Of a DNA stretch of 64,000 bases, positions 2,374-21,082 are shown in pieces. The notes below the pieces were generated by a model, which searched no databases, was not told the origin of the DNA, and saw only the letters and a program-made list of their open reading frames with translations. The stretch is from a virus (Duplodnaviria > Caudoviricetes). Where the stretch lies: the IMG/VR virus record IMGVR_UViG_3300028888_000001; one strand, given 5' to 3'. The first letter of the stretch is position 1. Every line of letters starts with the position of its first letter. The position numbers and the translations under genes were made by a program.

Positions 2374-2445
2374 AGGGCATTCGCCAAGCGGTAAGGCACA
2401 GCACTTTGACTGCTGCATGCACGTGTTCGAATCACGTATGCCCTG
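2374..2445 (+). tRNA. tRNA-Gln(TTG)
   Basis: AGGGCAT/ATGCCCT acceptor stem, GCCAAGCGGTAAGGC D-arm, CAGCA-CTTTGAC-TGCTG anticodon arm, GTTCGAATC T-loop; no encoded CCA. Confidence 0.95.
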
Positions 2446-3151: not shown

Positions 3152-3235
3152 GCCCGATTGACGGAATTGGTATACGTAACGGACTTAAAATCCGTGGTCC
3201 TATATGACATGTGGGTTCGAGTCCCACATCGGGCA
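3152..3235 (+). tRNA. tRNA-Leu(TAA)
   Basis: GCCCGAT/ATCGGGC acceptor stem, ACGGA-CTTAAAA-TCCGT anticodon arm, long variable arm, GTTCGAGTC T-loop. Confidence 0.95.
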
Positions 3236-3564: not shown

Positions 3565-4330
3565 AGATGGTAAGGTTAAACTATTTAACGATAAACAAAA
3601 GCACACTATATTATTTTGTAGCAGCGGAGTAATTAGTACGTATCTAATTAAGAAAACTTTCAAAAAAATAAAGCGAGAAAAAGAACCGTGGAATCATTAT
3701 CTTCATATAGTAATATGCAAGAATGACATTACTGATGATAATGTAATCTCTATACAATCAGAAATAAATAGATTAAAAGAGCACTTTGGAGAGAATATGT
3801 TTAATCCTAAAGTAACTCTCATAGGAGAATCCTTTAGAGATGTAAACGATTGGTTAGCTAAATTTGTACACGATTATTATAGCGATTTATCAATAGCGAA
3901 TTTAAATATTATTGTAGGGCTCACAAAATTCGGTTTCGAAGAAATTAAAACCGGAGATGAAGCTATAGATAAGAGTATAGAATATCCATTCAAAGATATG
4001 TGGCGTCACGATGTTTTAAGAAAAATAATCACCACAGAAAGAGATATTCTCGATAGAACTATCATATGCGAAAACCCTAAGCAAGATAAAAAGTTCTGCG
4101 GTGAGTGCAGAACTTGTAGAAATCTAGAATTGGATTTAGCAATGATTTATGCTGAGCAACCAAATGATGAAGTTATAGCTGATTTTGTTAAAGATTATTA
4201 TAAGAAAATCTTTAACAAGCCTCTAAGACATATGCAAGCAGCATACACTGAAGCTAGAGGACCATTTTTAATAGATTATCAAAAACAGCAAACACCAAAA
4301 ATCAAACCAATTATGAATATGAGGAATTAA
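3542..4330 (+). CDS. Divergent QueC-like (PP-loop) protein
   Basis: ILFCSSGVIST resembles the LFSGGLDST PP-loop; C-x9-CGECRTC resembles the QueC zinc site. Confidence 0.55.
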   Translation: MLIPLESEDGKVKLFNDKQKHTILFCSSGVISTYLIKKTFKKIKREKEPWNHYLHIVICKNDITDDNVISIQSEINRLKEHFGENMFNPKVTLIGESFRDVNDWLAKFVHDYYSDLSIANLNIIVGLTKFGFEEIKTGDEAIDKSIEYPFKDMWRHDVLRKIITTERDILDRTIICENPKQDKKFCGECRTCRNLELDLAMIYAEQPNDEVIADFVKDYYKKIFNKPLRHMQAAYTEARGPFLIDYQKQQTPKIKPIMNMRN

Positions 4331-16693: not shown

Positions 16694-16924
16694 ATTTTAT
16701 CACGTTAGAAATGCCATTATTAAGAGGGATTTCATTATTCATTCAGCTGCAGTAAGATATTGTTCATGAATACCTCCTTTCTAATATTATTAGTCTCTCA
16801 TTAATAATGGCTTTCTATATATTAAATTTTTTGTCGATTATATATTATAAATTTGAATGTAAAAATAACAAGCATGATATTATAAAATTTTACATTCAAA
16901 TTTATTTATAAGGGAGTGATAAAA

Positions 16925-18020
16925 ATGGCTTTTAATCTAGAGAATCAGATTCAAAATAATATTAAAGATTTACCGGATTACAACTATATGCTAGGTAGAA
17001 CTTTAATGCAGCCTTTTAAGCCTAGTAACTCTGGATCACGAGCATTGATGTCAGCTATACATGTTGAGCATTTAATGGTTCCATCAAAACCGGAAACCCC
17101 ATTAGTTCAAACCGGATATGAAACTGAATTTGGCGAGATGTCTACTAGTTATATCGAAGCTAGTGGTAATTGGGAAGTAATTTATAAAATAAACAAATTT
17201 TCATTTAACAACAATCATTATTATCTCATAGTAAGAAATCTAGAGACTGGTATATATGATGTGATTGAGAGAGTCACGTATAAACATAATACAGAGTCTT
17301 ATGGATATATGTGGGATAACAGTCGTATTGATGCGTTGAATATCGGAGACGTTATTAAAGATAAATCCATCATTAAAACTTCTAAAGGCTTTGACGAATT
17401 TGGAAATAAAATGAATGGAGTTAATCTATTAACGTTATATTTAAGCTGTGGACAGAATATGGAAGACTCGATCATTATATCTGAATCTGCAGCGAAAAAA
17501 CTTGAGACTAATCTGATAGAGAATACGTCGATCACCATAAATGATAATGATATACTATTAAATCTGTATGGTGATTATAATACGTATAAAACATTTCCTG
17601 ACATTGGGCAGAAAATAAACAACGGCATATTCTGTGCAATAAGAAGATTAGAGAATGAAAACTTATTATTCTCTCTATCTCAGCAGAGATTGAGAGATAT
17701 AATGATTTCAGATAGAAAAATTATAATGGATGGATATGTAGCAGACATCGATGTCTATTGTAACAATGTAGAAGCTCTTGGAGATTCTACTTATAATAAG
17801 CAGCTTTATAAATATTATCAAGAAAGAATTAATTTCTGTAGACAAGTATATGATCTTGTTGGCCCAATAGCATTAAATAACCAGATGACTTATGATCTAC
17901 AAGAGTTATTTGGAATTGCTAGAGATACCATTACAGGAAAGCAGTTTTTTAAAGAACGACAGTTTAACAATGTCATCATGGAAGTTACAGTAATGCATCC
18001 ACTGCCAATAATGGACGGAG
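16925..18020 (+). CDS. Phage (non-virion) RNA polymerase beta-like subunit, exon 1
   Basis: NSGSRALM, GQNMEDSIIISES RpoB motifs; ends ATG GAC GGA G just before the conserved GDK motif. Confidence 0.88.
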
Positions 18021-18466
18021 AAACTATATAGTTATCTCAGCGCATTTAGTAATAAGTGCGTTCCTACGGGGTTAATTGCAGGTAATTGGTAAAGCCTCGC
18101 ACCAAAGCGGAATCTGAAAAGATAGACGTAAAGGGACGAAAGTAGAAAAAACGCGAGGATGGTATATGGTTAAATGAAAAGTAAAGTGTATAGTCGGTAA
18201 TATACTTTACCCCTAAGTACTATTTAAAAATCCATGTTCTTGCAGCGAAACACCTAAAAGATTTTATCTCATGGTGGACGTTCAACGACTATCCGATGGC
18301 ATCGGAGTAAAGCCGCAAGCTAAAGGCGGAAGAAAAATCCCGGCCCTATTCTTATAGGGATGATAAATAGTCTATGCACGTTTCGAAAGAAAGTGACTTG
18401 GAATTGACCAAGCAATATATGTTGCGAATATATTGAAATCTGGCTCCCGTTTTAAATAAATACAAT

Positions 18467-18512
18467 TTTCTCAACACCTCGGTAAATCTTAACTCGGAAA
18501 GGTGGTGAGAAA
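18467..18512 (+). promoter_or_regulatory. RBS-sequestering hairpin with embedded late promoter upstream of tnpB
   Basis: TTTCTCA-A-CACCT pairs with AGGTG-G-TGAGAAA; AACA-CCTCGG-TAAA at 18473-18486. Confidence 0.7.
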
Positions 18513-18516
18513 TATC

Positions 18517-19722
18517 ATGAGTAATTCTACTTATATAAAAGGGTTTAAATATCGAATTTATCCAAATGATTGTCAAAAAGAAATTATAAATAAATTTGTG
18601 GATATGTATAGATTTGTTTATAATTGGGGTCTAGCTCTTGAAGAAGAGACATATCAAAAGTTCTTAAATGGAGAATCGGAGAAACGATTTTTATATTTCT
18701 TTGATCTATGCGCCGAATTTAAAAAGTTCAAATCTATAGAAGAAAATTCTTGGGTTTGTGAGCTTCCAAATACAACTGCGCGTTTAGCATTAAGAGATGT
18801 AATATATTCATTTCAAAAATTCTTTAAAAAGATAAATAGGTACCCAAAATTTAAATCTAAAAAGCGAAGTGTAAAAACTTTTAAAACTAGATCGGATAGA
18901 TTTTCATTTAATGATGATGGGAAGCTAAGATTTGAAGGCCTTCCTAAAGCATTTGTTGATGCTGCTTCCGATAGAGTTGATTTGCACTTCGATTGTGGAT
19001 TTAGAGATGAAAAATTTATACAGCCTTCTATTTCTATTGATAATCTTGGACGATATTGGGTTTCATTTTCTGTGGAAACTGAATGTGAAGTTCTTGACAC
19101 TCCAAAAACAGAACCAATAGGTATCGACTTAGGAGTTAAGACTACAATAACACTTTCTATAGGAGAGAAATTTAATAAACCCAAAGAAAAGTTAGAAAAA
19201 ATACAGCGTCAAATTAAGAAAGCCAATAGACGCGTTTCTCGTGATATTAATCGAAGATTTGCCGAATCAAGACGTACGAAAACCAAGTACGAAGATATAC
19301 CCAAAAGTAACCGCGCTATTAAGCGACAAGAAAAACTTTCTAAGTTATGTAAAAGACGGTATAATATCAAACGCAATTTCTATCATGAAACTGCTAAAAA
19401 GATAGTATTAAGGAATCCTGAAGGCATTGTGATGGAGACTATTCCAGTTCTTGAAACTATGAGAAAATATAAGAAAACAGCGAAATTTTTAGCTGACGCT
19501 GATTTCTATTTAATTACTCAAATTTTCAAAGAAAAATGCACGAAGTATTCTGTTCCGTTTATGCAAGCTGATAGATCATTTCCTTCATCGCAAATTTGTT
19601 CTAATTGCGGGTCAACTAGAAAAATTGGCGGTTATCATACTTATATTTGTCATAAATGTGGTATGAGAATGGATAGAGATATCAATGCTGCTATAAATCT
19701 TAGAAATCTATTCTTCGCTTAA
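18517..19722 (+). CDS. tnpB: TnpB RNA-guided endonuclease
   Basis: N-terminal KYRIYP HTH, RuvC GIDLG / VMET / DRDINAAINL, zinc finger CSNCG..CHKCG; catalytic D-E-D present. Confidence 0.93.
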   Translation: MSNSTYIKGFKYRIYPNDCQKEIINKFVDMYRFVYNWGLALEEETYQKFLNGESEKRFLYFFDLCAEFKKFKSIEENSWVCELPNTTARLALRDVIYSFQKFFKKINRYPKFKSKKRSVKTFKTRSDRFSFNDDGKLRFEGLPKAFVDAASDRVDLHFDCGFRDEKFIQPSISIDNLGRYWVSFSVETECEVLDTPKTEPIGIDLGVKTTITLSIGEKFNKPKEKLEKIQRQIKKANRRVSRDINRRFAESRRTKTKYEDIPKSNRAIKRQEKLSKLCKRRYNIKRNFYHETAKKIVLRNPEGIVMETIPVLETMRKYKKTAKFLADADFYLITQIFKEKCTKYSVPFMQADRSFPSSQICSNCGSTRKIGGYHTYICHKCGMRMDRDINAAINLRNLFFA

Positions 19723-19729
19723 AGCTTTA

Positions 19730-19955
19730 ACGGTTTATACAAATAGCTGGGTAGGTGTTGTATGAACTTTTGTACCGGGCACTGCTCTCGGGAATTTAAG
19801 TTCGTGGAGAATTGTATTTTATATTATAGTATTTACTCGGTATTTCGGAGCCGAGACTCTATTCTCCTTATTGGGAGGATAGGGGTTGCTATAGTATAAA
19901 TTAGTTTGACGAAGCGAAAAGGCGGGAGCCAAAGCAGATAAACTTTCCGATCGGT
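19730..19955 (+). ncRNA. Predicted TnpB omega-RNA scaffold with guide from exon 2
   Basis: Hairpin-rich 3' region with TACCG..CGGGAATTTAAGTTCGTGGAG and GAAGCGAA (TTCG/CGAA pairing) like TnpB-element right ends; boundaries approximate. Confidence 0.6.
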
Positions 19956-21082
19956 ATGGCGGTAAAGGTGTAGTTTCAAAAATACTTCCAGATAACAAAA
20001 TGCCAATACTTGAAAATGGTGAAGTTGTAGACATTATTAAGAACCAGAGTACGTGTATTAATCGTGAGAATATTGGTCAGCTGCATGAGCAGTCATTGAA
20101 TTTCATTGGTATGAGAATTCTTGACTTCTTTAAAACAAATGTGCTGACATACTCTGAGATGGTTCAGATGTGGTATAAATTCGTTTCTATGGTTGATCAA
20201 CCTCAAGCACAGATGGGCGCTGGGATGATTGACTTCTATGACGAAGAACAATGCAGATTGTTTATAGAGTCTATCTATGACGATGGTGGTATTATATTAT
20301 CATCTCAGCCGTTTACGACTCCTATAAATCTAGATACTATAGCAGAAATCTATAAAGAATTTCCATTCATTAAACCCTATAAGGTAGCTATGCCTATAGA
20401 AGACAGTAATGGTAATATAAGATTTGTAAAGTCCAAAAGAGACTTAGTTGTTGGAAAAATTTATAATTATAGACTCAAACAATATGCAGAGGAGAAATTC
20501 TCTGTAACGTCTTTATCGGCTACCAATCTTAAGAACTTAAATACTCGTTCTAAAGCTAATAAAGCGTATGAAACTAAGTATGCTAAGACACCGATCATGT
20601 TCGGTACCATGGAATCTGGTAACCTGTCTCATCTAGGCATGCAATATGTGGTAATGAATCTCATGCTATATAGTAGTAGCCCTAGAGCTAGAAGACTGTT
20701 TGAAGAGCTATTAATTGGAAATCCATATGATATCAATATAGTATTGGACAAAGACAGCAAAAATAGAAACGCTGAAATCATCAATGCTTTATTGAAAACT
20801 ATGGGTTTGAAATTAGTATTTTCAAAAGAACCAAAAGAAAAGAAAACCATGATGAATAATATTATGTATGAGCTTGTAAGTGCTAAAGACTTTAAACCTA
20901 AAACTAATATTAGACAGATCATGGACTTTTATGATGATGAAATAGAGCTTAAATATGCTGGAGCTCTTCATCATAAAAATAATAAACCAATGTATAATCT
21001 TATAATGATGGAGGATGTCAACAATGACGAACCTCAAACAAATATTAGAGCAATCATTGAAGAATCTGACGGAGAAGAATGA
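19938..21082 (+). CDS. Phage (non-virion) RNA polymerase beta-like subunit, exon 2
   Basis: (D)KLSDRYGGKGVV, MPILENG..DII.N..INRENIGQ, YNYRLKQ, FGTME motifs. Confidence 0.9.

Follow-up and report, generated by a model that had tools for sequence, protein, structure and literature searches.

A TnpA-less IStron in an RNA polymerase gene of a jumbo phage as a candidate RNA-guided homing intron

The window analysed here, a stretch of 64,000 bases, contains an RNA polymerase (RNAP) gene that is interrupted at its G-D-K motif by a putative group I intron, which itself carries an intact tnpB gene. This raises the question whether the element is a transposon equipped with a ribozyme or an intron that homes by means of an RNA-guided nuclease, as a sequence-only reading of this DNA had proposed. 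The window belongs to a complete genome of an uncultured phage, 313,331 bases long with direct terminal repeats. Its products include split RNAP subunits, a tubulin of the PhuZ type, a recombinase resembling UvsX/RecA and a protein resembling SbcC, on which grounds the phage was considered phiKZ/AR9-like, i.e. a jumbo phage; a PDB search for a candidate nuclear-shell gene gave no match. The RecA- and SbcC-type recombination genes on which the earlier reading had relied are thus present. Features of the window, together with related elements and cores found elsewhere, are gathered in Table 1.

Table 1. Positions of the features discussed in the text (window coordinates unless another contig or element is named)
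Feature	Position	Strand	Details
tRNA gene	2374-2445		
tRNA gene	3152-3235		
Exon 1, RNA polymerase beta-type subunit	16922-18020	+	phrog_3295 positions 14-388; spliced ORF open
Predicted TAM GGAG	18017-18020	+	family consensus GGNG; predicted from the flank; measured IS607 TAM AGGAG (PMC11061315)
Group IA2 ribozyme core (predicted)	18021-18435	+	weak RF00028 match; helix map; covariation in 10 cores
Core helix P1/IGS	18032-18038	+	
Core helix P7	18287-18291 / 18368-18372	+	
Core helices P2, P3, P4-P6, P7.1, P7.2, P8, P9, P9.1, P9.2	within 18021-18435	+	
IR stem, 5' arm	18441-18453	+	pairs with 19917-19931; loops out tnpB
Hairpin upstream of tnpB	18467-18512	+	would cover the ribosome-binding site of tnpB (18500-18508) in RNA read through from upstream
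AR9-type phage late promoter motif AACA-N6-TA	18473-18484	+	in 5' arm of hairpin; predicted start 18484
tnpB	18517-19722	+	401 aa; RuvC triad D204/E307/D388 and Zn finger intact
omega-RNA scaffold (predicted)	19773-19937	+	SL1, long SL2, terminal SL3; omega-G at 19937
SL1 pseudoknot loop CUGCU	19782-19786	+	pairs with last intron bases AGCAG (19933-19937)
SL3	19921-19930	+	overlaps 3' arm of IR helix
Exon 2, RNA polymerase beta-type subunit	19938-21082	+	PF00562; phrog_3295 positions 396-696
Predicted guide	19938-19957	+	first ~20 nt of exon 2; pseudoknot and P10 covariation
Related elements L054, L315			beta' catalytic motif DxDG|D
Related elements L056, L301, L304			one site in another RNAP subunit
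Related element L059			nine bases away from the site of L056, L301 and L304
Related element L141			fourth RNAP subunit
Related element L313			phrog_2943 polymerase gene
Related element L305			unannotated gene
Related elements L318, L319			another unannotated gene
R motifs of further group I cores	C1 113837, 114740, 217127, 303247	+	five more on -

The Asp codon of G-D-K was split after its first base, which closed exon 1 (...GACGGAG), and exon 2 began ATAAACTTTCC. Joined together, the exons formed 747 codons without internal stops, reading ...PIMDGDKLSDRYGGKGVV... and MDGDKLSDRYGGKG across the junction; phrog_3295, an RNAP beta family, was matched by both exons, over adjoining stretches of its profile. 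The motif was uninterrupted in 46 related viral loci and in 123 of 124 longer homologues, and a pattern search of viral contigs for the exact spliced junction returned 11 short matches. Removal of 18021-19937 (1,917 nt, 3' end ...AAAGCAG) restores a 747-aa RNAP beta subunit; that splicing does so is predicted, and the open frame and the adjacent profile positions bear out the earlier claim that the GDK motif is rebuilt. A U-ending 5' splice site and group II ends were rejected, no U-ending junction with a terminal G preserving the GDK frame.

Other interruptions of the same gene were noticed in passing. Further group I introns occurred near its codon 43 in relatives (L011, L012 and L035, near position 3700-4030). 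Exon-2-like RNAP beta fragments P0246-P0251 start near residue 370-388, which suggests interruptions close to the GD|K site in other phages. For fragment P0251 and for the TnpB P0017 alike, the longest contig measured 16,744 bases, a shared figure that hints at a second element at the GD|K site; such an element was searched for and not found.

Rfam detected neither intron nor omega-RNA at gathering threshold, the core reaching 28 bits against RF00028 (E 1.3e-4, under the gathering score of 50). All helices from P1 through P9.2 could be placed, including the P7.1 and P7.2 insertions of subgroup IA2. Among 10 homologous cores, 569 out of 595 cells were paired and double-sided changes affected 28 out of 60 pairs, so that the complete group I core earlier assigned to 18021-18440 was upheld. 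The exon side of P1 was made of the last three bases of exon 1, with a G-C pair, not U-G, at the splice site; the final base of the 5' exon was a G paired with C in all nine elements. The IGS covaried with exon 1 position -2 (GGAG/CUC, GGCG/CGC, GGGG/CCC), while P10, which joins the IGS to the start of exon 2, gave a run total of 23 at the assigned junction and 0-9 at shifted ones. The IR stem would bring the 3' splice site to the core, and an IR-like helix of unrelated sequence was predicted in most relatives. To judge from its sequence, 18021-19937 is a group IA2 intron carrying an intact tnpB and an omega-RNA. It displays the features of an IStron: an IA2 ribozyme at the 5' end, tnpB located 3' of the core within the IR stem, a scaffold ending at the 3' splice site, and splice sites predicted to regenerate the host ORF.

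TnpB displayed the domains HTH_OrfB_IS605, OrfB_IS605 and TNB and passed the NCBIfam model guided_TnpB. Residues D204, E307 and D388, as well as four Zn-finger cysteines, were invariant in 75 out of 75 homologues, and dN/dS reached about 0.2-0.3 at most. The best PDB match to the family profile was ISFba1 (8IAZ, E 7e-60), and NCBIfam ranked IS200_TnpB over IS607_TnpB, both under cut-off. The assignment to the IS607 lineage is tentative; for it speak the ISFba1 match and the G-rich flank, against it the sub-models below cut-off and the lack of a RAGATH-18 match. A single copy of tnpB was found in the complete 313-kb genome, which contained no TnpA of either serine (PF00239) or tyrosine type (PF01797), in agreement with the initial description of an intact TnpB without TnpA; the serine type was also missing from five related records. 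Lack of TnpA is no bar to IStron membership, because published IStrons include ORF B-only forms.

The segment downstream of tnpB, first described as omega-RNA-like and ending at G19937, folded with z = -4.6. Across the family, intron-terminal NNCAG is complementary to CUGNN, which forms the loop of the first omega stem; pair 4 was formed in 12 out of 12 elements and pair 5 in 10 out of 12, with several kinds of base pair among the elements (permutation p of about 4e-4 for pair 4 and 1e-4 for pair 5, values that ignore relatedness). In the CboIStron the scaffold end is marked by the same kind of pseudoknot (10.1101/2023.11.20.567912). [quoted passage not shown] Guide length was set by analogy with ISFba1 (PMC11061315).

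Left flanks displayed GGNG in eight out of nine elements and AGGG in one, while right ends displayed NCAG in all 12 and were not conserved across elements except for CAG. Measured TAMs of IS607 TnpBs are AGGAG (PMC11061315). The flank is no independent proof of a TAM, because P1 and the pseudoknot also demand a GNG flank and a CAG end, and because an ORF-less sister intron (L312) shares the GGAG flank. A guide taken from exon 2 and a TAM formed by the end of exon 1 are nonetheless well supported at the sequence level: the former by pseudoknot and P10 covariation, the latter, still a predicted TAM, by covariation and the measured AGGAG. Discrimination between target and resident allele at position -3, predicted for this locus, fits the whole family (G in nine out of nine left flanks, C in 12 out of 12 right ends); the rule was already known from the CboIStron.

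Further introns and TnpBs were noted. The ORF-less sister intron (L312:1090-1490, 5' flank GGAG|) resides in a gene which we take, by motif, to be NrdD-like. Its phage genome (G005, 235-kb) displayed three tnpB genes (L339, L343 and L344), each after a group I R motif and two of them followed by RAGATH-18; no serine recombinase was found in G005. The genome of the phage studied here (G000) displayed nine further group I cores, which belong to another subfamily; the 5' exons of those inspected appear to end in U, and several have nuclease-like ORFs upstream of the R element. In L042 (5676-7670) and L044, the same RNAP beta gene is split not at GD|K but at PIRFG|EME, by a group I intron whose 5' splice site is of the U type and which holds a TnpB of 29 % identity; by sequence this is an independent TnpB-intron lineage.

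Two signals preceded tnpB. The hairpin around its ribosome-binding site was encountered in nine out of nine family members (z -2.2 to -5.3). Within it, the motif AACA-N6-TA, which corresponds to the late-promoter consensus of AR9 (PMC5449584), was exact in six out of nine members and near-exact in three. In this genome it favoured upstream positions (29/252 upstream of ORFs versus 9/252 inside ORFs), with a preferred spacer of 6. An internal late promoter is predicted from this; a transcript from 18484 could not splice, because it would lack the ribozyme and the IR arm.

About 80 TnpB homologues (41-61 % identity) were retrieved by protein search, all from metagenome assemblies. Among the matches listed for cultured phages, plasmids and species genomes, no TnpB relative exceeded 34 % identity, and no bacterial relative above about 32 % was found. 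Eleven other elements were fetched, each splitting a gene whose intact homologue is present in this phage genome; with the GD|K element, the family amounted to 12 elements at nine sites in seven genes. All sites were in phage genes, most of them at conserved motifs (GD|K and DxDG|D, for example). Eight of the other elements had a complete 5' part and displayed the same group I core with tnpB within about 100 nt of it, which leaves no space for tnpA in the nine complete elements. According to the sequence-only reading, near-identical copies at unrelated sites would have pointed to an ordinary transposing IStron. None was found, every genome searched holding one copy; the 11 relatives, at eight other sites, are diverged (TnpB 44-61 % identical at other sites), and the family holds at least nine sites in total.

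The left and right core dinucleotides differed in five out of nine elements, the GD|K element having matching AG/AG. Mismatched cores abolish TnpA_S excision in the CboIStron, and the TnpBs of these five would therefore have no donor joints to repair; they are nonetheless intact. The three elements sharing one site (L056, L301 and L304) formed a clade (support 100/97), in which identity amounted to 63-64 % between TnpBs and to 64-68 % between host exons, with dN/dS of at most about 0.25; this suggests long residence under purifying selection without a transposase. In these elements, P1 had undergone a compensatory change where it covers the Gly wobble base. Lower pS in tnpB (0.59-0.64) than in the host exons (0.80-0.88) of this trio could be read as recent transfer; this was rejected, because all tnpB pairs plateau at 0.57-0.68 and the gap reflects saturation under AT bias. 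The two beta' DxDG|D elements were not a clade (p-AU 1.7e-6; the likelihood gap of 408 is large for one constraint, and the test was used only together with tree supports). The family changes sites, and the route may be a host TnpA acting in trans, reverse splicing or illegitimate recombination. Identities of cores and TnpBs were uncorrelated (rho 0.09), so that co-inheritance of both as a fixed unit is unsupported. The core of L056 (3551-3905) was strongly AT-drifted and shortened, with 55-62 % identity to the others, its TnpB being 63 % identical to that of L301.

Intron-less alleles were abundant, but none among the viral homologues compared matched the guide. Of the intact genes, the two closest, at 80.5 % and 76.4 % DNA identity, displayed seven and five mismatches, respectively, in the 20 nt target, the best of 33 distinct viral targets displayed three, and known relatives ranged from three to nine. 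The GGNG flank was present in all 33 distinct empty alleles. For comparison, a single mismatch in positions 1-13 impairs the ISFba1 TnpB. The phage's own genome held no perfect second target; two sites matched 11 out of the first 12 guide bases, without the flank. Because relatives carry too many guide mismatches, homing would be limited to near-identical phages, outside collections; because no empty allele matches the guide, wide exclusion of competitors is unlikely. The earlier proposal of homing and exclusion thus held in part: indirect support for homing comes from the lack of TnpA, the mismatched cores, the clade at one site, purifying selection and the phage-type promoter, whereas wide exclusion conflicts with the five to seven mismatches of the nearest empty alleles. 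Of all guide-target pairs seen, the closest involves an intron-less allele of this phage's own genome (G000, position 111683 in window orientation, outside the window): flanked by GGGG, it fits the predicted guide of L141 in 18 out of 20 bases.

The element probably derives from a group B-like (IS607-lineage) IStron by loss of TnpA and now behaves as a phage-adapted RNA-guided homing intron. Read-through RNA of the RNAP gene would form the IR helix, hide the ribosome-binding site of tnpB and self-splice, so that the RNAP mRNA is intact. A second transcript, of late type, would begin at about 18484; devoid of ribozyme and IR 5' arm, it would be unspliceable, and with its ribosome-binding site freed, it would supply TnpB and an omega-RNA with the exon 2 guide. 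In a mixed infection with a near-identical intron-less phage, the RNP would cut the GGAG|ATAAAC junction and phage recombination would then copy the intron into the cut allele; the resident allele would be spared because GCAG stands where GGAG was. A rare jump to another GGNG site would yield an element able to home at once, and since the sequence just behind the 3' splice site always serves as guide, the many sites would be explained. It is an even call whether this extends to a whole clade of IStrons, which would then have abandoned transposon life to become self-reprogramming RNA-guided homing introns of jumbo phages, with TnpA lost, tnpB under a phage late promoter and a TAM that, with relaxed demands at the glycine wobble, reads GGNG. 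Separate transcripts would then serve splicing and guide, which would remove the conflict between the two in bacterial IStrons.

There is a small chance that the element is an ordinary non-autonomous IStron of IS607 type, moved by host TnpA_S in trans, with a TnpB that restores donor joints. Such movement would suit the dispersal over at least nine sites in seven genes and the separate ancestry of the two beta' elements, and ORF B-only IStrons, CsISt1-like AG|...CAG ends and the matching cores of the GD|K copy are all compatible with it. It sits poorly with single copies in the genomes searched and no near-identical ones, with the lack of bacterial relatives above about 32 % identity, with five mismatched cores out of nine and right ends unconserved beyond CAG, and with sites confined to phage genes, mostly at conserved motifs, under phage-type expression signals.

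A protein intron endonuclease of other jumbo phages has reportedly been shown to interfere with competitors. That interference is likewise the main benefit here, with TnpB destroying the RNAP gene in co-infecting rivals whose distance precludes gene conversion, is decidedly unlikely, as the RNA guide, unlike protein homing enzymes, is intolerant of wobble changes and relatives differ at three to nine of the 20 target bases; what speaks for it is the essential, conserved motif targeted, the GGNG in every distinct empty allele and the late expression signals. Intron-endonuclease interference in jumbo phages has been discussed (PMC13565253). It is highly improbable that TnpB is a leftover, or is retained to regulate splicing as an RNA-binding protein or to act as a maturase, instead of serving spread as a nuclease. 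TnpB binding does alter splicing in the CboIStron, and no guide-matching empty allele was found; but the effect there is repression, not aid, and the catalytic triad is invariant in all 75 homologues. The ribozyme itself is independent of TnpB, because an ORF-less sister intron exists.

The element is a variant of the IStrons and not a separate class. By its sequence it would belong to the group B type, with CsISt1-like ends, as a member of a phage-restricted clade. Membership in Group A (IS605-type) was rejected, the 5' exon ending in G; the group B target GG and element end CGG were replaced by AG|...CAG, as in the exception CsISt1. IStrons had at the outset been taken for transposons of Firmicute chromosomes only, which is wrong, since phage- and plasmid-borne IStrons are published; phages c-st and D-1873 of C. 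botulinum, for instance, carry CbISt3 and CbISt4 (PMC4227781). A survey of 2014 described the 5' exon ending in G, the IR stem, forms with ORF B only and AG|...CAG ends (CsISt1), and several published IStrons are single-copy (PMC4227781). For the CboIStron, a guide from exon 2, a TAM from exon 1, strict -3 discrimination, competition between splicing and guide formation, and TnpB-driven homing were demonstrated (10.1101/2023.11.20.567912), and a 2026 review suggested that TnpA-less IStrons could spread via intron homing (PMC13565253). Already published, then, are the guide from exon 2, the TAM from exon 1, discrimination at -3, a G just before the intron and IStrons that lack TnpA or reside in phages. 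The conserved late promoter with its hairpin, the mismatched cores in five out of nine elements and the same-site clade of three members under purifying selection are new; neither demonstrated homing by TnpA-less IStrons nor a phage-domesticated clade was found in the literature searched.

The family offers a clean test of homing, being TnpA-free, with a defined guide, a predicted TAM and natural variants at nine sites, and a source of divergent compact TnpBs, possibly with a short GGNG TAM. If the proposed reading is true, RNA-guided nucleases are a further class of phage intron homing endonuclease, with target change built in, and the internal late promoter is a simple answer to the conflict between splicing and guide.

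Group B IStrons (CboIStron, BcISt1, CbISt3/CbISt4) share with the jumbo-phage elements an IA2 intron with tnpB and omega-RNA, a 5' exon ending in G, an IR stem enclosing the ORF, a pseudoknot that ends the scaffold at the 3' splice site, exon 2 as guide, a G-rich TAM and the -3 difference between self and non-self; they also occur in phages and without TnpA. In contrast, the jumbo-phage elements display AG|...CAG in place of GG|...CGG ends; TnpA or remnants of it are absent from all complete members seen. They are single-copy, at conserved motifs of lytic jumbo-phage genes, carry the phage late promoter and hairpin, often have mismatched cores, and their TnpBs are about 30-34 % identical to clostridial ones. 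CsISt1 of Clostridium sporogenes, compared by description only, is likewise an IA2 element with ORF B only, present in one copy after AG and ending in CAG, but measures 2,369 bp and resides in a bacterial genome (PMC4227781). ISFba1, an IS607 TnpB with a RAGATH-18 RNA, is the best structural match and its TAM AGGAG fits the GGAG flank (PMC11061315), but it has no intron; the jumbo-phage omega-RNA gives no RAGATH-18 match and position -2 of the flank varies across the family. The portal-gene intron of Staphylococcus phages Romulus and Remus (JX846613; L316) also combines a group I core, a tnpB (annotated as IS605 OrfB transposase) and an omega-like 3' end in an essential phage gene without TnpA; its TnpB is only 30 % identical and represents a separate lineage in another phage family. 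With introns of the T4 td/I-TevI type and the HNH introns of jumbo-phage RNAP genes, the element shares an essential host gene, a conserved motif and a nuclease ORF in a peripheral loop (PMC13565253), as well as a late promoter with a hairpin occluding the ribosome-binding site; it differs from those protein endonucleases in that specificity would come from an RNA guide, which is reset at each insertion site and tolerates few mismatches.
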